Below, piece after piece: positions 48,542 to 60,452 of a DNA stretch of 64,000 nt. The notes beneath the pieces are model-generated. The model had not been told where the DNA came from, searched no databases, and was given only the letters and a program-made list of their open reading frames with translations. The stretch spans positions 140,748 through 204,747 of the forward strand of contig CAYRJZ010000001.1 of assembly GCA_964424775.1 (NCBI GenBank). Direction: 5' to 3'. The stretch comes from an uncultured Gammaproteobacteria bacterium (GTDB taxonomy: Bacteria; Patescibacteriota; Microgenomatia; Levybacterales; UBA12049). Positions within the stretch are counted from its first letter, which is position 1, and the number at the start of each line of letters is the position of its first letter. A program made the position numbers and the translations under genes.

Positions 48542-48612
48542 TCGGGGATCGGAGAATTGAACTCCGGTCACACGGACCCCATCCGCGCATTCTACCGTTA
48601 AACTAATCCCCG
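48542..48612 (-). tRNA. tRNA-Pro (anticodon GGG), no encoded CCA
   Basis: Minus-strand sequence CGGGGAT-TA-GTTT-AACGGTA-GAAT-G-CGCGG-ATGGGGT-CCGTG-TGAC-CGGAG-TTCAATT-CTCCG-ATCCCCG-A folds as a cloverleaf. Acceptor stem 7/7 WC, anticodon stem 5 bp (4 WC, 1 G-U), T stem 5/5 WC, and a D stem with two G-U pairs. The C1:G72 pair plus A73 is the ProRS identity set. The anticodon loop AUGGGGU has U33 and G37. Confidence 0.8.
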
Positions 48613-51854: not shown

Positions 51855-52127
51855 ATGACGAAGAAAGATTTAATAGAAATAGTCGCTAAAAAGGCCAACC
51901 TAACGAATAAAGCTTCACGGGATGCTGTCCAGACAACGCTAAATACTATCCGTGATTCGCTCAAGAGAGGAGAGAAAGTTGTTTTGACTGGATTTGGAAC
52001 TTTTAGTGTGAGAAGTCGTCAACAACGCATTGGACGAAATCCAAAAACTGGTGAACGAATTACTCTTGCTGCTCGCAAAGCTCCTGGATTTACCCCAGGA
52101 AAGACATTTAAGAAAGCAATCAGGTAA
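51855..52127 (+). CDS. hup: DNA-binding protein HU
   Basis: MTKKDLIEIVA...GFGTFSVRSRQQRIGRNPKTGERITLAARKAPGFTPGK. SD gagggggtga upstream of the ATG at 51855. Confidence 0.85.
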   Translation: MTKKDLIEIVAKKANLTNKASRDAVQTTLNTIRDSLKRGEKVVLTGFGTFSVRSRQQRIGRNPKTGERITLAARKAPGFTPGKTFKKAIR

Positions 52128-52194
52128 ATTTTTCCTGCCCTACATGAAGAGGTTTCTCAATATGAGAGACCTCTTCTGTTACAATGGAGTTACT

Positions 52195-53175
52195 ATGACT
52201 ATTAATATTCATAATTTATCCAAATACTACTCTGTTCATAAAAAAGAGCCAGGATTTATGGGATCTCTCAAATCTCTTTTTTCCAGAAAATATGAAACAG
52301 TAAAAGCAGTTGACTCAATTTCATTTTCTATTGATGAGGGAGAGGTCGTCGGCTTTATTGGACCAAATGGAGCTGGAAAGACGACAACACTTAAATGTCT
52401 CTCAGGCCTTCTCTATCCGACAAAAGGAAAAATCGAAGTATTAGGATTCACGCCCTTTGATCGAAAGCATGAATACTTAAGACAGATATCACTCGTCATG
52501 GGTCAAAAAAATCAATTATGGTGGGATCTTCCTGCAATGGATACATTTTTATTAAATAAAGAGATATATCAAATACCTGATGCTTCATTTAAAGAGGTTA
52601 TTGATGATCTGTCAGCAAGACTTGAGGTAACAGACTTGCTCCATGTGCCTGTCAGAAAATTATCTCTTGGGCAGAGAATGAAAATGGAGCTTATTGCAGC
52701 ACTCATTCATTCACCAAAAGTTCTTTTTCTAGATGAGCCGACAATAGGTCTTGATGTCGTTATGCAAAAAACAATTCGAGAGTTCTTAAAAGATTACAAC
52801 ACTAAATACAAGGCAACAATTATTTTAACGTCACATTATATGGGTGATGTTGAGGCACTTTGTAAAAGAGTAATTGTTATCAATCATGGAAAAATTCTTT
52901 ATGATGGATTACTCTCTGACTTAACAAAAAAGCAGGCTCCATATAAAACGATAAAAGTAATTTTTTCTGAGTTTGTTGACCCTAAAAAGTTAGAAAGTAT
53001 TGGAAATACAAAGTCTTTTCATTATCCAGAATGGGAAGTAAAAGTAAAACAAAATCAGGCAAATGATGTTGCTGCGGAAATTCTTAAGTCACTTCCTGTT
53101 GAGGATATTACAATTGAGGATCCTGAGATGGAAGATGTTATTGCAGGTTTTTTTGAAACAAGTAAAAAAGAATAA
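52195..53175 (+). CDS. ABC transporter ATP-binding protein (ABC-2 system ATPase)
   Basis: Walker A GPNGAGKTT, signature LSLGQRMK, Walker B VLFLDEPT. About 100 aa of C-terminal accessory domain. The start is the ATG at 52195. Confidence 0.85.
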   Translation: MTINIHNLSKYYSVHKKEPGFMGSLKSLFSRKYETVKAVDSISFSIDEGEVVGFIGPNGAGKTTTLKCLSGLLYPTKGKIEVLGFTPFDRKHEYLRQISLVMGQKNQLWWDLPAMDTFLLNKEIYQIPDASFKEVIDDLSARLEVTDLLHVPVRKLSLGQRMKMELIAALIHSPKVLFLDEPTIGLDVVMQKTIREFLKDYNTKYKATIILTSHYMGDVEALCKRVIVINHGKILYDGLLSDLTKKQAPYKTIKVIFSEFVDPKKLESIGNTKSFHYPEWEVKVKQNQANDVAAEILKSLPVEDITIEDPEMEDVIAGFFETSKKE

Positions 53176-53183
53176 TACTATGT

Positions 53184-53981
53184 ATGCGTTATTTTCATAT
53201 CTTTCTTATCCACTTTCATCGAGTAATAGAGAATAGGAGTAGATCATTTGTTTGGACTCTGTTAGCTCTCTTTAATCCACTTATTTATTTGTGTTTTTGG
53301 CTTGCAGTTTATAAAAGTAGCGGGAACTTAGTTGCTGATTGGTCACTTCCTGAATTGACCTCGTATTATCTTCTCTTAACTTTTGCAGGATCTTTTCTTA
53401 TTGCTCACATTGAAGAATCAGTTGCGCTTGAGGACATATATGAAGGTGGTTTAGTCCGGTTTATTTTAAGACCTTTCTCTTATTTTTGGGATCTTTATTT
53501 TGGTGAACTGGGATGGAGAATTTTTCAGGGAAGTATCGGACTATTCATTTTTTTCATTTTCACTCTTTTCTTTGGTCAACTTACGACTGTAGTCACATCA
53601 CCTCTCTTAATTCTTCTCACAATTCTTTCAGTGATTTTGGCATTTACATTGTCTTTTATTTTTAAAATGATTTTAGGTTTTAGTGCATTTTGGTTAACTG
53701 AATTTAGAGGGCTTCAAAGCACTGTTGAGATATTTATTTTAATTTTCGGAGGATTTATTGTCCCACTACATTTCCTTCCTTCTTTCATTGAGGGTATTGC
53801 GATGAAATTGCCTTTTGCCTACATGGTGTACTATCCCATTCTGGCAATTCAAGGAAGGCTAGATCTACTAACAATAATAAAAGTATTATTTCTTCAACTG
53901 GTATGGATTGGAGTATTTGCAATTTCTTATAAAATTATTTGGAACGCAGGTCTGAAAAGATTTACTGGAGTAGGGAATTAG
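53184..53981 (+). CDS. ABC-2 family permease, type A (copy 1)
   Basis: Six TM helices. The block IYEGGLVRFILRPFSYFWDLYFGELG is paralogous to copy 3. Confidence 0.65.
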   Translation: MRYFHIFLIHFHRVIENRSRSFVWTLLALFNPLIYLCFWLAVYKSSGNLVADWSLPELTSYYLLLTFAGSFLIAHIEESVALEDIYEGGLVRFILRPFSYFWDLYFGELGWRIFQGSIGLFIFFIFTLFFGQLTTVVTSPLLILLTILSVILAFTLSFIFKMILGFSAFWLTEFRGLQSTVEIFILIFGGFIVPLHFLPSFIEGIAMKLPFAYMVYYPILAIQGRLDLLTIIKVLFLQLVWIGVFAISYKIIWNAGLKRFTGVGN

Positions 53982-53982
53982 A

Positions 53983-54771
53983 ATGAAACATGCATTCAGA
54001 ATTTATAAGAGACTTTTCATAATGAATTTTTCTGTTCTCACAGCCCATCGTGCTGCTTTTGTAAATCATCTCGTTGGAGGTACTGTATGGGGGATTTTTT
54101 CATTTGTCGTACTCCTCCTGCTGACACATAATATCAAAGGATTATTTACATGGAGTAGGGAAGAAATGCTTTTATTAGGAAGCATACTAGCTATAATACT
54201 TGGAATTTTTAATATGTTCTTTCAGGGAAATTTTGATGCATTTCCTCTATTAGTCAATAAAGGCAAACTTGATCAATATTTACTCAAGCCAGTCGATTCA
54301 CAATTTTTTCTCTCAGTTTGGCACATAAAGATGATGAGTATAACTCGTGCTCTTATTGGGATTATATTTCTCGTGTATGTAACAATTCAATATGATATGA
54401 CACTTTCTTTAGTTGGAGTACTTGGTGTTATTCCACTGATGATAGTATCAATGGGAATTTACTATGCCATCTGGTCTGTTGTTACGACTCTGACTATTTG
54501 GTTTGATAGAGCGACTAATATTGTAGAACTGTTGCATTCACTTCAGGGGATGATGCGAATCCCTCCAGTTGCTTTTCAAGAATTAAATACTATTCTTTTT
54601 TTATTAGTATTTCCACTTACAATTGTTGCTGCAACACCCGTGGGAGTGATTCTTGGGAAATCTGACTTTATAAGCATACTAGTTCTTTTCATTACATCAG
54701 TCACATTTCTTTTTATTGCTCGAAAGTTTTGGTTTTATGCACTAAGATTTTATACCAGTGCAAGTAGTTAA
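53983..54771 (+). CDS. ABC-2 family permease, type B (copy 1)
   Basis: Six TM helices. The block GKLDQYLLKPVDSQF and the C-terminal RFYTSASS are paralogous to copy 4. Confidence 0.65.
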   Translation: MKHAFRIYKRLFIMNFSVLTAHRAAFVNHLVGGTVWGIFSFVVLLLLTHNIKGLFTWSREEMLLLGSILAIILGIFNMFFQGNFDAFPLLVNKGKLDQYLLKPVDSQFFLSVWHIKMMSITRALIGIIFLVYVTIQYDMTLSLVGVLGVIPLMIVSMGIYYAIWSVVTTLTIWFDRATNIVELLHSLQGMMRIPPVAFQELNTILFLLVFPLTIVAATPVGVILGKSDFISILVLFITSVTFLFIARKFWFYALRFYTSASS

Positions 54772-54773
54772 GT

Positions 54774-55565
54774 ATGAAAAAATATTTTCGTGTGGCTCGA
54801 AATACATGGGATGAATCTCTCGCTTATAGAACTAGTTTTGTGCTTTTTCGACTCAGAGAATTTCTGCAAATAATTTCTTTATATTTTGTCTGGTTTTTTG
54901 TGACATCTCAAGGAGATTTTTTTAACTACAACCAGAAAACATTGCTTACTTATATACTCGTTAGTGCATTTGTCAATGATGTTATTTTTTCAACGAGAAC
55001 TACTCGAATTGCCTCAGAAATCAATGAGGGTGTGTTAACAAATTTCTTAATTCGACCCATGTCATATCTAAAATATTATTTCGCTCGTGATTTTGGTGAC
55101 AAAGCAATGAATATCCTATTTTCACTTGGAGAACTCACACTTCTCTTCTTATTACTTCAACCACCTTTCATTTTTCAGACAAATATAATAGCTCTTCTAT
55201 TATTTTTATTCAGTATGTTTTTAGGAGTTATTCTTCATTTTTTAATTAGCGTATTGATTGGATTTATTGGATTTTGGAGTAATGAGGGGTGGGGACCACG
55301 GTTTATCTTCTATCAGTCAGTTGGTTTTTTCTCGGGATCACTTTTTCCATTAGATTTACTACCAAAATCTATTGCAACAATCTTTCAGTTCCTGCCCTTT
55401 TCATATCTTACTTATTTTCCAACTAAGTTATATCTTGGACAATTATCAATACAGGAAGTTATTCTTGGATTTATTGGCGTGAGTGTGTGGATATTTATCA
55501 TGAGTAGGGTGACACTATATGTTTGGAGGAGGGGCCTTCACGTATATACTGCTCAAGGAATGTGA
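54774..55565 (+). CDS. ABC-2 family permease, type A (copy 2)
   Basis: INEGVLTNFLIRPMSYLKYYFARDFG matches the block in the 53184 gene. Confidence 0.65.
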   Translation: MKKYFRVARNTWDESLAYRTSFVLFRLREFLQIISLYFVWFFVTSQGDFFNYNQKTLLTYILVSAFVNDVIFSTRTTRIASEINEGVLTNFLIRPMSYLKYYFARDFGDKAMNILFSLGELTLLFLLLQPPFIFQTNIIALLLFLFSMFLGVILHFLISVLIGFIGFWSNEGWGPRFIFYQSVGFFSGSLFPLDLLPKSIATIFQFLPFSYLTYFPTKLYLGQLSIQEVILGFIGVSVWIFIMSRVTLYVWRRGLHVYTAQGM

Positions 55566-55566
55566 T

Positions 55567-56349
55567 ATGAAAAAATATATTTTTCTCTGGATAAAGGTAA
55601 CGAGCCAAATAACTCAAGTTGCTTTTGCATCTCGACTTGGAGTTGTCCTTTTTACTATCGGCAAAATAATTCGATTTGTTTTCTTTCTTGTTTTCTTATT
55701 TCTCATTACATCACGTACCAATAGCCTTGCTGGATATTCGATTTGGCAAGTCATACTTTTCTTTTTGACTTTCAATATTATTGATATTATTGCTCAATTC
55801 TTATGGCGCGATGTATATAGATTTCGAAGTTATATCATATCAGGTAATTTTGACATGATACTTACCAAGCCAATATCTCCACTTTTTCGTTCACTTTTCG
55901 GCGGAAGTGATGTGCTGGATCTGATTACCCTTGTTCCTTTAGGAGTATTCTTTTTTTATGTCGTAAATCAATTGGACGGAATAACAATAGTAAGCGGATT
56001 ACTTTATATTTTATTAGTTATAAACGGACTTATTATTTCGCTTGCACTTCATATTTTTGTTCTTGCACTTGGAATTGTGACAACTGAAGTAGATAATGCA
56101 ATTTGGATGGTGAGAGAGATCACACAACTGGGAAGATTTCCTATTAAAGTCTATCCTAAGCCAATAAGTTTTGTCTTTACTTATTTTCTTCCTGTTGCCG
56201 CACTTATTGTTATTCCAACTGAAGCACTTTTAGGTTTAGTTACTGTGCAGGGTATACTTTTAGCAGTCATATTTAGTAGTCTATTGTTATCGATCAGTCT
56301 TTGTTGCTGGAGAGGTGCGCTGCAAAAATACTCTAGTGCAAGTAGTTAA
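55567..56349 (+). CDS. ABC-2 family permease, type B (copy 2)
   Basis: GNFDMILTKPISPLF and the C-terminal LQKYSSASS match the 53983 gene. The start is the ATG at 55567. Confidence 0.65.
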   Translation: MKKYIFLWIKVTSQITQVAFASRLGVVLFTIGKIIRFVFFLVFLFLITSRTNSLAGYSIWQVILFFLTFNIIDIIAQFLWRDVYRFRSYIISGNFDMILTKPISPLFRSLFGGSDVLDLITLVPLGVFFFYVVNQLDGITIVSGLLYILLVINGLIISLALHIFVLALGIVTTEVDNAIWMVREITQLGRFPIKVYPKPISFVFTYFLPVAALIVIPTEALLGLVTVQGILLAVIFSSLLLSISLCCWRGALQKYSSASS

Positions 56350-56352
56350 GGG

Positions 56353-56700
56353 CATTCTGGGAAGAGAGTAAGCCAGATTCTGTTCATACCACAATCTCTC
56401 TCAAAGTGATGAATATCAATCTGTCAGCTTTTAAGGCTGATGCCTTCTAACTTTGCTGCTCGTGTATAGGCTCATTGCAGCGTTCGGAAGTTGCAGCAGG
56501 GAGGATTGCCCGTTTCACACCCACTCGTCTCTGTTGCTCTCAAGTCTTGTTAATTCAAGACCCGTTCTTTACCCCATGTGTGGGAAAAGGATAAAGAAAC
56601 TAGATGTTACCATTCGGAGCTTACACTCCATCCCATCTATACATGCTGTCTGGACTTTCCTGTCCGTCAGATGACGGACTAGTGGTCCTTCTTCCCAGAA
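56353..56700 (-). ncRNA. rnpB: RNase P RNA (bacterial type), about 350 nt
   Basis: The minus strand carries ACAGGAAAGUCCAGAC (P4 5' strand, compare GGAAAGUCCGGGC) and AACAGAAUCUGGCUUA (P4 3' strand, compare ACAGAACCCGGCUUA). The change CCGGG to CCAGA is matched by CCCGG to UCUGG, a compensatory change. Also present: AUAGAUGGGAUGGAGUG / GGUAACAUC (compare AUAGGGCAGG...GGUAACGCC), a P1 pairing UUCUGGGAAGA / UCUUCCCAGAA at the two ends, a P3 hairpin GUCCGUCA-ucug-UGACGGAC, and a P2 pairing ACCAC / GUGGU. The region is GC-enriched relative to its flanks. Confidence 0.75.
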
Positions 56701-56732
56701 TAGAATAAGTATACCAGATAAATACTATAAGA

Positions 56733-59651
56733 TCAAATAGATGAGCCGGATTTGCAAATCATACTATACTCGCATGACTTACATAGCATCCCCCGCGAAC
56801 AGAGAAAATCACTTTTCTCAATATCTGAGACAATTTTGAGGATTTCATCTTTTGCCGTAAGTAAGTCTTCTTTACTGCGGGTTGTTGTCACTTTTTTATT
56901 TGACTCAATGTAGTAGAGAGTAAGTGCTATCTCTTCAGGCATTCGGTGTAGTATGTCATCTTTTACTTCAGATGCGGCTAAAGCGTAGAAAGTTAACTGC
57001 ATATCAGATTTAATTTTTTTCTCATCAGGAATGTTGGCTCCCGTTTTATAATCTATTACCTCAATTCTTCCATCTGGAAGTTTATCAATTCGATCAATTC
57101 TCCCACCAACTTTTAACTTCTCTATCCAAAATTGGAATGGTAACTCAACAGCAAGTGTACTGGGGTTCTCCTCAAGTGTCATTTTGGCAAATTCTAAAAG
57201 CATTTTGTCTGCTTGGGAATATGCTTGGTCAGCATGATCCTTACTTGTATACCCTCCTTTGACCCAGGAATTTTTAAGTATGTCCTGTATGCTTTCTGCT
57301 TTTATTCGCGGATCTGTTCTCCTCATGAGAAAGAAGTCTCGAAGACTGTTATGGACACTTATTCCATAACTGAGTGCAGGAGATGGAGGAGTTGGAACAT
57401 TTAGGATATATCGCAATTTATAATGCAGAGGACATGTCTGAAATGTTTGGATTTGTGAATAGGAAATATAGGTAATTGGAGCCATGGATTTTTGAGGAGT
57501 ATCTTTAACTGGTGATTTTTTATTTTGTTCAAGATTGAGATTGAAAACGTCAAGAAGCGATAGTTGGTCACCTTCATCGCGTGGCTGAAGTGAAGAGATA
57601 ACTTTTTGAACATATTCATCTCCTAATGTTTCAGATAAAAATGGTGAAAGCTTTCTTTCTCTTTTTCCTTCTCCATAAAATTTTGCTGCTGTAAGAAAAA
57701 GTTTTTCTTTCGCTCGAGTCATCGCAACATAAAAAAGACGTCGTTCTTCTTGAATATTTTCATCGCCTGATGGGAGCTCTTCTCGAATAAGTTGGCGCGG
57801 AACAGGGATTTGCTCTTTTCGATCCCTACTTGGAAATCTTTGTGTAACAAGATTGACGACAAATACGACAGGAAATTCAAGTCCTTTACTCGAATGAACA
57901 GTAAGGATATTAACGGCATCATTATTACTCCAGTCAATCTCTGATGCCATTGGACTTTCTCCAAGCTCAAGTGACATATCAATCCATTCAACTACCGCAA
58001 AGACAGATGCATCTTCACGATTAGTAGCGAATGTCTGGAGTTTATTGAAAAATTTTGCAATATTTTCTGCGGCCTTTTCTGTTTTGATAGTTCGAGGATC
58101 TAAGTAGTGACCAAGGAGTCCTGAATCCTCAAAGAAATAAAAGAGTATTTGACCGGCATTTTCAGTTGACACTTTATTCATGTGATTTTTCATCATTTCA
58201 GTTATTTTTTTCATTTTTTCACGTCCTTTTTCAGTAACTGCCGCATCATCGCACTGTTCCAGCGCTTCAAAAAGAGTCATATTATTCTTTTTTGCAGAAT
58301 TAAGAAGTGCTGCAATGTCTCGTGCTTCAATTTCAAAAATTGGCATTGTGAGAACGCGGTAAAGACATGCATTATCATCAAAGTTTGCGATCACCCGAAG
58401 ATATGCAATGAGATCTTTTATTTCTTCTTGTTCAAAAAGATGAGATGGACCTAAAAATTGTGTCGGTATATGATACTTTTCCAGAATTTTTTGAAATGGT
58501 AGTGCATGGTCATTTGCTCGAACAAGAATAGCGAATTCGTTAAAAGATCTTTTGTTTTTTTTAATTTCCTCTTTAATGACTTGTGCTACTAATTCTGCTT
58601 CATCTTCGACTCGTGTTCCATACAAAAATGTTACTCCTTCTCCTTGTATTCCAGACATTGCCTGTAATTCTTTTTTAATACCTTCTTTCACTTCAAGTCG
58701 GTCAGGATTATTATGTTGAATTACTTTATATGCGCCATCAAGTATTGACTGAGTAGATCGGTAGTTCTTTGTAAGTGTAATAATTTCTGCTGTTGGGAAA
58801 TGTGATCGAAACTGCATCATATTCGCAAGTGCTGCACCACGCCACCTATAAATACTTTGATCATCATCACCTACAACAGTGATATTTTTTTTGTCTCCAG
58901 CGAGAAGAATTGCTAATTCATTTTGCGCATAATTTGTATCCTGAAATTCATCAACCAAGATAAACTTAAATTGTTCTTGGTATTGCTTGAGAATATGAGG
59001 TCTTATGCGAAAAAGCTTTAAAACATTACTTATAAGATCTGAAAAGTCCATTAAGTCATTTTTCACTATGAGGTCTTCATAATGAGAAAACGCGCGAGAT
59101 AACTCTTTTAACTTTTTCCTTTCGTCCTCATCAAATTCTGATGGTGATAAGGAATTTGTAAATTTTTCATATTGCTCTGGAGAAATATCGTCATCTTTAA
59201 GCCGACTAAAATGTTGCAGCATGCCTTGTAAAAATTTTGTGGGATTTCCTAAAGGTCGAAAATACTCTAGTTGAAAGGTGAAAAGATGTTTTCGTAAAAA
59301 GAGGAGACTTTCTGCTTCGGTCATAAGTTCATATTGAGGGGATATCCCAAGATGAATAGCTTCCTGTCTCAGTATCCGATCACAAAAGGCGTGAAAGGTC
59401 TCAATCCACATACTTGTATATCCATAAGGAAGGATCTCATCAATGCGCGTTTCCATTTCGGATGCAGCTTTTTCGGTAAAAGTGAGGGCAAGGATATGTG
59501 AGGGAGAAGTATTTTTTTCAGTGATGAGATGTTCTATTCTTTTGGTAATGACGGTTGTTTTTCCTGTTCCCGCACCAGCAATAATAAGAAGCGGACCTTC
59601 CCCATGTGTTATTGCTTTCTGTTGTTCGATATTGAGAGTGGAGTCGGGCAT
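56733..59651 (-). CDS. UvrD/PcrA-family superfamily-1 helicase fused to a C-terminal PD-(D/E)xK (RecB/Cas4-like) nuclease with a Cys cluster
   Basis: The start is taken at MPDSTLNIEQQKAI. Walker A AGAGTGKTT and helicase motifs through DEFQDT and the VGDDDQSIY region. The C-terminal 250 aa carry a RecB-family nuclease motif (VIDYKTG) and four cysteines (C-x5-C-x2-C-x5-C), as in the AddB/Cas4 Fe-S domain. Confidence 0.75.
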   Translation of the reverse strand: MPDSTLNIEQQKAITHGEGPLLIIAGAGTGKTTVITKRIEHLITEKNTSPSHILALTFTEKAASEMETRIDEILPYGYTSMWIETFHAFCDRILRQEAIHLGISPQYELMTEAESLLFLRKHLFTFQLEYFRPLGNPTKFLQGMLQHFSRLKDDDISPEQYEKFTNSLSPSEFDEDERKKLKELSRAFSHYEDLIVKNDLMDFSDLISNVLKLFRIRPHILKQYQEQFKFILVDEFQDTNYAQNELAILLAGDKKNITVVGDDDQSIYRWRGAALANMMQFRSHFPTAEIITLTKNYRSTQSILDGAYKVIQHNNPDRLEVKEGIKKELQAMSGIQGEGVTFLYGTRVEDEAELVAQVIKEEIKKNKRSFNEFAILVRANDHALPFQKILEKYHIPTQFLGPSHLFEQEEIKDLIAYLRVIANFDDNACLYRVLTMPIFEIEARDIAALLNSAKKNNMTLFEALEQCDDAAVTEKGREKMKKITEMMKNHMNKVSTENAGQILFYFFEDSGLLGHYLDPRTIKTEKAAENIAKFFNKLQTFATNREDASVFAVVEWIDMSLELGESPMASEIDWSNNDAVNILTVHSSKGLEFPVVFVVNLVTQRFPSRDRKEQIPVPRQLIREELPSGDENIQEERRLFYVAMTRAKEKLFLTAAKFYGEGKRERKLSPFLSETLGDEYVQKVISSLQPRDEGDQLSLLDVFNLNLEQNKKSPVKDTPQKSMAPITYISYSQIQTFQTCPLHYKLRYILNVPTPPSPALSYGISVHNSLRDFFLMRRTDPRIKAESIQDILKNSWVKGGYTSKDHADQAYSQADKMLLEFAKMTLEENPSTLAVELPFQFWIEKLKVGGRIDRIDKLPDGRIEVIDYKTGANIPDEKKIKSDMQLTFYALAASEVKDDILHRMPEEIALTLYYIESNKKVTTTRSKEDLLTAKDEILKIVSDIEKSDFLCSRGMLCKSCEYSMICKSGSSI

Positions 59652-59714
59652 GCAGACTATTCTATCATACTCAATCGCTTGTTTAGGAAGAGGTGAGTTG
59701 TTATGATAGTCCGT

Positions 59715-60452
59715 ATGGCAACTCCAGCGCGTGAGTTTTATCTTCCATTTCTCAGAAAAGAGCAAAGGGCAAAAGATACCTATTCTTTTTATTTCGAAAA
59801 AACGGAACAGTTAGAGTATAACCCAGGTCAGTACATCCGAATGACACTTGATTTGCCTGAGGAGGACCCAAGAGGATTTCGACGACCTTTTTCTTTGTGT
59901 GCTTCACCTCTAGACCCTGAAATTATGATTACAACAAAAATTGTTGAAAAGCCAAGCATTTTTAAGCAAAAGTTATCATCTCTTCACCCAGGTGAGAAGA
60001 CTAAATTTTTTGGACCAATCGGAGGATTTGTCCTTCCTCAAGATTTGCAAACACCACTAGTCCTTCTGGGAGGAGGAATTGGGATTACACCTTTTTATTC
60101 AATGATTCGCTACGCATCTCAAACAAATTTCCAAACTCCGACAACACTTATCGTCTCATTCAGCACAGTGGAAGAGGCTGCTTTTTATAATGAGTTGAAA
60201 GATATTTCCTCACAGAACAGTTATCTCCAGGCAGTTTATACCATTACCCATCCAGAAGAATCTCAACAAGAATGGTCAGGCGAGAAGGGGAGAATAAGTG
60301 AGGAGATGATAAAAAAATATGTTGCGGATCCTCTGAATGCCTACTATATGATCTGTGGCCCAGAAATAATGGTGAATGCCATGATAGAGACAGTGACAGC
60401 TATGGGGGTGTCAGAAGATCAGATCAAGAGAGAAAATTTCACAGGGTATTAA
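59715..60452 (+). CDS. FNR-like FAD/NAD(P)-binding oxidoreductase
   Basis: R-x-F-S (RRPFSL) flavin-binding motif and GGGIGITPF NAD(P)-binding motif. No C-terminal Fe-S cysteine cluster. The start is the ATG at 59715 (MATPAREF). Confidence 0.6.
   Translation: MATPAREFYLPFLRKEQRAKDTYSFYFEKTEQLEYNPGQYIRMTLDLPEEDPRGFRRPFSLCASPLDPEIMITTKIVEKPSIFKQKLSSLHPGEKTKFFGPIGGFVLPQDLQTPLVLLGGGIGITPFYSMIRYASQTNFQTPTTLIVSFSTVEEAAFYNELKDISSQNSYLQAVYTITHPEESQQEWSGEKGRISEEMIKKYVADPLNAYYMICGPEIMVNAMIETVTAMGVSEDQIKRENFTGY

Follow-up and report, generated by a model that had tools for sequence, protein, structure and literature searches.

Ribonuclease P (RNase P) is the enzyme that trims tRNA precursors. Its RNA gene, rnpB, was predicted on the minus strand (56353–56698) of a 64-kb stretch of DNA from an uncultured bacterium (assembly GCA_964424775.1, contig CAYRJZ010000001.1, positions 140,748–204,747), which we analysed as a whole and refer to as the window. 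P12 is among the most conserved helices of RNase P RNAs, and covariation indicates that its site has here been re-used for a long-range pseudoknot.

In the Candidate Phyla Radiation (CPR), 10 of 35 closed genomes seemed to be without an RNase P RNA until the threshold of the Rfam model RF00010 was lowered (Lui et al. 2021, PMC8172020). Many of the CPR RNAs were without P13, P14, P16 and P17, and 23 of the 35 were without the UGG motif. Two from Microgenomatia were without P12, P13, P14 and P18, the absence of P12 being flagged as highly unusual (PMC8172020). With these RNAs, a grouping that is descriptive and comes from one paper rather than from a curated family, the window RNA shares the CPR host, the sub-cutoff RF00010 score and the missing P12, P13, P14 and UGG of L15. 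It differs in that the P12 site holds a pseudoknot strand, where their text calls P12 “missing”, and in that two small hairpins stand in the region of P18, which is listed there as missing. In their text, on which our comparison is based rather than on sequences or figures, neither a pseudoknot nor a P10.1-like helix nor a tertiary contact appears.

With type A RNAs (RF00010; the M1 RNA of Escherichia coli) the window RNA has in common the P1–P11 core, the P4 and P6 pseudoknots, P15/P16, the blocks CR-I to CR-V, their order, and the length. It departs from them by having no P12, P13 or P14, no GGU in L15 and no GNRA loop on either small hairpin in the P18 region, and by carrying two extra hairpins, the new pseudoknot and A-U/A-U as the distal pairs of P4. 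Type B RNAs (RF00011; Bacillus, Geobacillus) resemble it in the absence of P13/P14 and in a hairpin between P10 and P11 that, in the window RNA, would likewise contact the P12 site. In contrast to type B, a Watson-Crick pairing replaces the tetraloop-receptor contact, and P12 itself is gone, so that there is no P12 GAAA tetraloop. P6 and P16 are present, and nothing like P5.1 or P15.1 is found in the covariation-supported structure, which has no helix between P5 and P7 besides the P6 strand. P12-bearing relatives of the window RNA are reversed in polarity with respect to type B, the inserted hairpin carrying the tetraloop and P12 the receptor-like motif. Cryo-EM and mutagenesis have shown for type B that, once the tetraloop contact of P12 is removed, the arms of P10 and P12 come apart, the double T-loop misfolds and hardly any activity is left (PMC13254310).

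The RNAs of Mycoplasma fermentans and the archaeal type T RNAs are also P12-less (as cited in PMC8172020), and type T is without nearly the whole specificity domain (PMC7191817). These are reductions for which no replacement has been reported, whereas the window RNA has kept CR-II and CR-III whole and is predicted to compensate by a pseudoknot. A pseudoknot in place of P12 was not found described in the literature searched, which leaves out most subscription journals; a 2026 survey of how RNase P RNAs have evolved makes no mention of the CPR, and neither does P finder. As a gene the present rnpB is ordinary, divergent ones having been known from CPR genomes before; the structural variant of the specificity domain appears to be new.

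Identification of the RNase P RNA gene

The gene gave a full-length match to RF00010 (type A), with an alignment spanning model positions 1–367 and with P1 closing the RNA at 56698 and 56357. The score was 58.4 bits, the E value 4.9e-17 in a local search and 2.8e-15 over the whole window, and no other RNase P-like match was present within the 64 kb. At the curated Rfam thresholds (gathering score 100 for RF00010) the window yielded a tRNA only. The RNA is ~342–346 nt long, and its segment has a G + C content of 46%, compared with a background of ~36%. The folding energy of this segment was −111.3 kcal/mol (z = −3.4), and none of 100 shuffled sequences was equally stable. The core blocks CR-I to CR-V and the bulged U in P4 were all intact. 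The Rfam alignment itself contained a 71-nt “insert” at P9 and a deleted CR-III. We rejected both as a misalignment, the comparative structure showing CR-III to be present and resolving the insert into a mini-P9 and two extra hairpins, hpA and hpB (described below). The Rfam alignment also has P12, P13 and P14 almost entirely deleted.

Full-length RF00010 matches were also found in relatives whose helicase, encoded upstream of rnpB, is 95, 75 and 70% identical to that of the window. They lie in the gene-free gap after the helicase stop codon and score 60.1–65.3 bits, likewise below the threshold. The initial annotation had called an RNase P RNA at this place and had named an Rfam score under the gathering threshold, along with an rnpB elsewhere in the genome, as grounds to abandon the call. 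The score is indeed below it (58.4 < 100). The call nevertheless holds, because relatives share syntenic sub-threshold full-length matches, because the helices covary, and because such scores are the published norm for the CPR. Its coordinates agree almost to the base with the RF00010 alignment (56353–56698). The size of ~350 nt and the tight packing that it described also correspond to what we found, with gaps of 34 nt and 7 nt to the neighbouring genes. We put the probability that 56353–56698 (minus strand) is a functional rnpB with the architecture described here at about 0.87. The gene would code for the ribozyme by which pre-tRNAs lose their 5′ leaders.

Further relatives were retrieved from metagenome contigs with the pattern GGAAAGTCCNGNC-N{90,120}-GCAACAGAGA-N{135,165}-ACAGAANCNGGCTTA. 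This pattern fixed only the universal blocks and the unusual spacing of the lineage, with two variable P4 positions per strand left as N so that P4 could be tested without bias. The scan gave at least 120 loci, and the retrieved RNAs were 46–96% identical to the window RNA. After CR-II they form two classes: 47 RNAs have a normal local P12 hairpin, and 65 distinct RNAs, including that of the window, are P12-less. The P12-less RNAs were aligned by sequence only (alignment A3, to which the percentages of pairing and the two-sided changes given below refer). The structure was drawn by hand, because RNAalifold, unable to draw pseudoknots, nested P4 in place of P1/P2.

Over the whole structure 88.6% of the cells were paired, compared with 36–44% when the 3′ partners were slid by 1–3 columns. 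Changes on both sides were found in 72 of 99 pairs, and none of 500 shuffles reached the observed values. Covariation across this alignment supports the predicted helices, the new pseudoknot included. The 65 aligned sequences could seed a covariance model for finding such genes in CPR genomes.

A pseudoknot at the site of P12

Between CR-II and CR-III the window RNA has ~8 nt (CGAGUGGG) and no local P12 hairpin. At this place GUGGG (56520–56524, minus strand) pairs with CCCAC (56580–56584, minus strand) in the loop of hpA, the first of the two extra hairpins. The five pairs of this pseudoknot are 97.5% paired, and all five have changed on both sides; one of them is C-G in 42 RNAs, U-A in 19 and U·G in two, and another is A-U in 51 and G-C in 10. 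Tested alone, the pseudoknot had a covariation of 0.43, compared with 0.08–0.11 for slid partners, and none of 500 shuffles matched it. Doubly changed cells numbered 56, compared with 2–10 for slid partners, the pairing of which was 21–61%. Sixteen distinct versions with full complementarity occur in the 65 RNAs, among them CUCAC/GUGAG, CCUAC/GUAGG, CUCGC/GCGAG, UCUGC/GCAGA, CCGAC/GUCGG and CUAGU/ACUAG. A sixth pair was considered and rejected, as the window RNA is without it and only about one third of the RNAs have it.

P12 might instead simply have been lost, with the hpA loop and GUGGG unpaired and the covariation an artefact of alignment or ancestry. Relatedness by itself can beat column shuffles, and two versions, CCCAC/GUGGG and CUCAC/GUGAG, together fill 41 of the 65 rows. 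However, the slid-partner control keeps this relatedness, and the signal falls there to the values given above. A simple loss also has to account for 16 versions of the 5-nt strands, all fully complementary, among which each of the five pairs has changed. The signal came from an alignment in which no structure was used, and the retrieval pattern had included neither strand. In one P12-less RNA (L132, 928–1283) the two strands have disappeared together, with the hpA loop cut to GAAAG and the GUGGG segment to GU-AA. We consider a mere loss of P12 improbable and read the two strands as a pseudoknot standing in its place. It is somewhat more probable than not that the RNAs with this pseudoknot for P12 and a type A-like catalytic domain, at least 65 from Microgenomates-like CPR, form a real and undescribed class.

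The classical 11-nt GAAA receptor is CCUAAG...UAUGG. In the P12-bearing class, a stem-closed GAAA tetraloop caps hpA in 34 of 46 RNAs (compared with 0 of 65 in the P12-less class), and P12 of 12 of these 34 carries a motif resembling that receptor, CC(U/G)UAA(A/G)...YAUGG. The tip of hpA may therefore contact the P12 site in both CPR classes, a Watson-Crick clamp having taken over from the tetraloop-receptor contact in the P12-less one. The pseudoknot would then tie a P10.1-like arm to the J11/12-J12/13 module and could hold the double T-loop that binds the tRNA elbow in its active fold. This bracing role is proposed by analogy. If it is true, the two classes together are a natural swap of a tetraloop-receptor contact for a pseudoknot in stabilising the tRNA-elbow module. 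The double T-loop is braced by P13/P14 in type A and by the tetraloop-receptor contact of P12 in type B, and the pseudoknot would also be a third way to do so.

Several observations weigh against a functional rnpB of this architecture. The Rfam score is far under the gathering score, and no RNR motif of rnpA, the gene for the protein subunit that works with the RNA, was found in the 64-kb window. A scan for promoter consensus sequences found two sites in this AT-rich region where 1.8 are expected by chance, and no terminator-like site was found on the RNA strand. The aligned sequences share ancestry, and there have been fewer evolutionary events than the counts of cells suggest; covariation is uninformative where the RNA is invariant, as in P11, in most of P4 and in part of P7. 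The receptor-like motif is strict in only the 12 of 34 tetraloop-bearing RNAs, and the clamp function is argued from type B.

The missing P12, P13, P14 and L15 GGU, together with the low score, would also suit a decaying or non-essential remnant of rnpB, with tRNA 5′ processing carried out by another rnpB or by a protein-only RNase P (HARP) elsewhere in a genome of which 64 kb were examined. A remnant is hard to reconcile with a structure that compensatory changes have preserved in over 100 divergent relatives (46–96% identity), nor would it be expected to retain the universal core blocks CR-I to CR-V and the bulged U of P4. Moreover, similarly diverged RNAs are the sole RNase P RNA found in closed CPR genomes (PMC8172020). 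We regard decay as very unlikely and keep to a functional gene.

A 73-aa open reading frame (ORF) with a TTG start lies wholly inside rnpB on the plus strand (56453–56674). Its three codon positions vary equally (0.219, 0.200 and 0.199), and the family commonly has stop-free antisense stretches of this length (median 66 aa), in agreement with the initial annotation, which had taken it for spurious. That the region is protein-coding, or is a 3′ untranslated region or terminator of the helicase gene ending just 34 nt before the RNA, with a fortuitous likeness to RNase P, is effectively refuted by the full-length match (E 2.8e-15), the missing codon-position signature and the covariation throughout. 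Annotation pipelines that use the Rfam cutoff will overlook rnpB here and in related genomes and call the spurious antisense ORF instead.

Helices of the specificity and catalytic domains

All features of this section are on the minus strand. In the specificity domain, P10 is formed by AG (56600–56601) and CU (56502–56503), with the pairs A56601-U56502 and G56600-C56503. The first of these is A-U in 34 RNAs, G-C in 18, G·U in 10 and unpaired in three; the second is an invariant G-C. P11 is 99.2% paired and almost invariant. Its 5′ strand and CR-II (J11/12) form AGAGCAACAGAGA (56528–56540), which matches the Rfam consensus and is invariant in the 65 RNAs, part of the block having been fixed by the retrieval pattern. 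CR-III (J12/13), UGUGAAACGG, is followed by the 3′ strand of P11, GGCAAUC with a bulged AA, and by the 3′ C of P10 (together 56503–56519). GUGAAACG and AAUCC, which the retrieval pattern left free, vary little or not at all. The core of a specificity domain is thus present, with (near-)invariant AGAGCAACAGAGA and GUGAAACGGGCAAUCC and with P10/P11 enclosing CR-II and CR-III.

P13 and P14 are absent, the corresponding model segments of 19 and 23 nt having shrunk to 5 and 3 nt, and GUGAAACG is joined directly to GGCAAUCC. In two relatives (L097 and L194) an extra G+C-rich hairpin, GGUCCCCUCGGGGAC, stands between GUGAAACG and GGCAAUCC (A3 columns 231–250), where type A RNAs have P13/P14.

The extra hairpin hpA (56565–56599) has a 10-bp stem and a 14-nt loop, UUUUCCCACACAUG; it is 93.1% paired, and 9 of its 10 pairs have changed on both sides. 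The second, hpB (56541–56564), has 9 bp, all changed on both sides, and is 98.5% paired. Because P10 consists of A56601-U56502 and G56600-C56503, both hairpins fall between P10 and P11, which is by position only the place of P10.1 in type B RNAs. The loop of hpB, AAUUAA in the window, is near-invariant across the family (UGAAUURACA), which suggests a tertiary contact or a protein-binding site.

A mini-P9 hairpin with a GUAA tetraloop (56602–56614) is 100% paired, with changes on both sides in 4 of 4 pairs. The initial annotation had read the strings AUAG...GGUAACA as J11/12-like elements. The strings are there, but AUAG belongs to the 5′ strand of P6, and GGUAACA is this mini-P9 with its GUAA loop.

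The catalytic domain is type A-like, with P1–P5, the P4 and P6 pseudoknots, P15/P16, CR-IV and CR-V. P1 has 9 bp (56690–56698 with 56357–56365) and is 80.7% paired, with two-sided changes in 5 of 9 pairs. P2 pairs ACCAC (56682–56686) with GUGGU (56388–56392), which follows CR-IV, and is 87.7% paired, with two-sided changes in all five pairs. The P3 hairpin (56662–56679; 7 bp) is 91.7% paired, again with two-sided changes in every pair (7 of 7). These three helices had been proposed from the window sequence, in which they pair, and they covary across the 65 RNAs.

P4 is formed by CR-I, GGAAAGUCCAGAC with its bulged U (56660–56648, paired positions 56657–56649), and CR-V, ACAGAAUCUGGCUUA (56383–56369, paired positions 56377–56370). 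The assignment of CR-V is based on the sequence, the RF00010 alignment and the pairing counts. The initial annotation had placed both halves at these positions. CR-I contains GGAAAGUCC with the bulged U, and CR-V contains ACAGAA...GGCUUA; the two are complementary over 8 bp, and P4 is 99.8% paired and mostly invariant. Its two free pairs, compared in 124 RNAs, are A-U/A-U in 93, G-C/A-U in 10, A-U/G-C in eight and U-A/A-U in seven; the remaining states are G·U/G-C, A-U/A·C and the canonical G-C/G-C, with two RNAs each. A-U/A-U is the norm of the lineage. The claim that CCAGA/UCUGG replaces a universal CCGGG/CCCGG in a compensatory manner is therefore correct as to compensation, the changes covarying in the 124 RNAs, but CCGGG/CCCGG is not universal. 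The Rfam consensus for P4 prints the third G in lower case, and P4 of the Bacillus subtilis type B RNA is GUCCAUG/CAUGGCUUA.

The 5′ strand of P5 (56644–56648) pairs with 56494–56498; the outer three pairs are general in the lineage, and the two inner ones are specific to the window. In P6, GUAUAG in J5/7 (56637–56642) pairs with CUAUAC in the P16 loop (56464–56469). A complementarity of 6–8 nt between J5/7 and the P16 loop is kept despite complete sequence turnover in 56 of the 65 RNAs, in a test that takes the best complement and is somewhat lenient. Its versions include UAAAGC/GCUUUA, GGAAGCG/UGCUUCC and GCAAUGC/GCAUUGC, besides UGUAUAG/CUAUACA in the window. P7 pairs GGG (56632–56634) with CCC (56499–56501) by two invariant G-C pairs and a third that is window-specific. 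A56631-U56502 was rejected as a further P7 pair, as it is 60% paired, compared with 95% for A56601-U56502 of P10. The P8 hairpin (56616–56629) is 99.7% paired, and 5 of 5 pairs have changed on both sides.

P15 (CUUC/GAAG), the internal loop L15 and P16 (GCUGC/GCAGC) occupy 56444–56490. P15 is 91.3% and P16 93.5% paired, and all their pairs have changed on both sides. The GGU that in L15 of type A RNAs pairs with the tRNA 3′-RCCA is not found in the window RNA, where the 3′ side of L15 reads AAAGUUA, and it occurs in 3 of the 65 RNAs. The tRNA-Pro gene of the window (48542–48612, minus strand) has no encoded 3′-CCA (...CCCCGA|CAUAAC). Of 11 contigs from the P12-less class, eight have a syntenic tRNA-Pro without CCA, a small sample of one tRNA species that fits an L15 without the CCA-binding GGU.

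In type A RNAs a GNRA loop of P18 docks into P8; in the region of P18 the window RNA has two small hairpins, neither with a GNRA loop. The first (56424–56440, P18 in the Rfam alignment) follows P15, has the loop CUUAAAA and is ~75% paired in a poorly aligned region. The second (56407–56418) precedes CR-IV, and its outer pairs are 93% paired, with covariation. The CR-IV-like GAGAGAGAUU (56393–56402) lies just 5′ of the P2 3′ strand and corresponds to a conserved GAGAUAGAUUG block in the alignment. Five relatives (L004, L095, L125, L133 and L198) have an extra hairpin between the 3′ strands of P2 and P4 (A3 columns 426–443), a place that P19 occupies in some type A RNAs; the window RNA has none there.

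Neighbouring genes, promoter-like site and host

Upstream of rnpB, on the same strand, lies a gene for a UvrD/PD-(D/E)XK helicase-nuclease, and P1 begins 34 nt past its stop codon TGA (56735–56733). At the other end, P1 lies 7 nt from the stop codon (56347–56349) of a convergent ABC-2 gene, the last of four consecutive ABC2_membrane_6 genes, which lie on the opposite strand and end at 56349. These four tandem paralogous permease genes follow an ABC ATPase gene (52030–56349 in all, plus strand), an unusually long array for one transporter operon.

A promoter-like site of the sigma-70 kind (56708–56736, minus strand) consists of a −35 element TTGATC (56736–56731), a spacer of 17 nt and a TG-extended −10 element TATACT (56713–56708). 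The −35 element overlaps the helicase stop codon, and the −10 element ends 9 nt before P1. Comparable elements occur at the equivalent position in three relatives (L001, L002 and L004). The RNA is probably transcribed from this putative promoter of its own, as had been supposed in the initial annotation. The site is a plausible one, although its match to the consensus is not above chance.

The closest homologues of the helicase (95% to ~63% identity) are metagenomic. Because the named ones belong to Levybacteria, Roizmanbacteria and a “Patescibacteria group”, the host is, as judged from this protein, a Microgenomates-like member of the CPR. In distant Patescibacteria (38–63% helicase identity) the RNA was not kept at the helicase-adjacent place. 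A scan of genome contigs with a helicase alignment, which responded to generic UvrD motifs, gave among the matches listed mostly distant or unrelated helicases. The nine best loci among these had no RNase P RNA beside the helicase, and synteny therefore appears limited to the closer relatives.

An exact-sequence look-up of two window proteins gave no match, partly because the helicase ORF as listed starts too far upstream. This ORF (56733–59765, minus strand; 1010 aa, TTG start) extends ~39 codons beyond homologues of 966–975 aa and overlaps a divergent gene (59703–60452); the true start is probably near 59645. Some helicase homologues (among P0039, P0080, P0098 and P0101) have 1234–1344 aa and Hint/intein Pfam domains (PF01079, PF14890). 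Inteins are thus found in the helicase of some Patescibacteria, and the window copy is intein-free.

Inside the helicase coding sequence there was a match to RF03531 (“C. difficile sRNA included into helicase gene”) at 57681–57781 (minus strand), with 43.5 bits. Further matches were found in three relatives (L001 5876–5967, L004 5876–5975 and L006 4376–4475), that of L006 reaching 69.5 bits and exceeding the gathering score of 65.2. We rejected them as small RNAs, since they recur within the same gene in distant relatives and look like a conserved coding motif of UvrD helicases.

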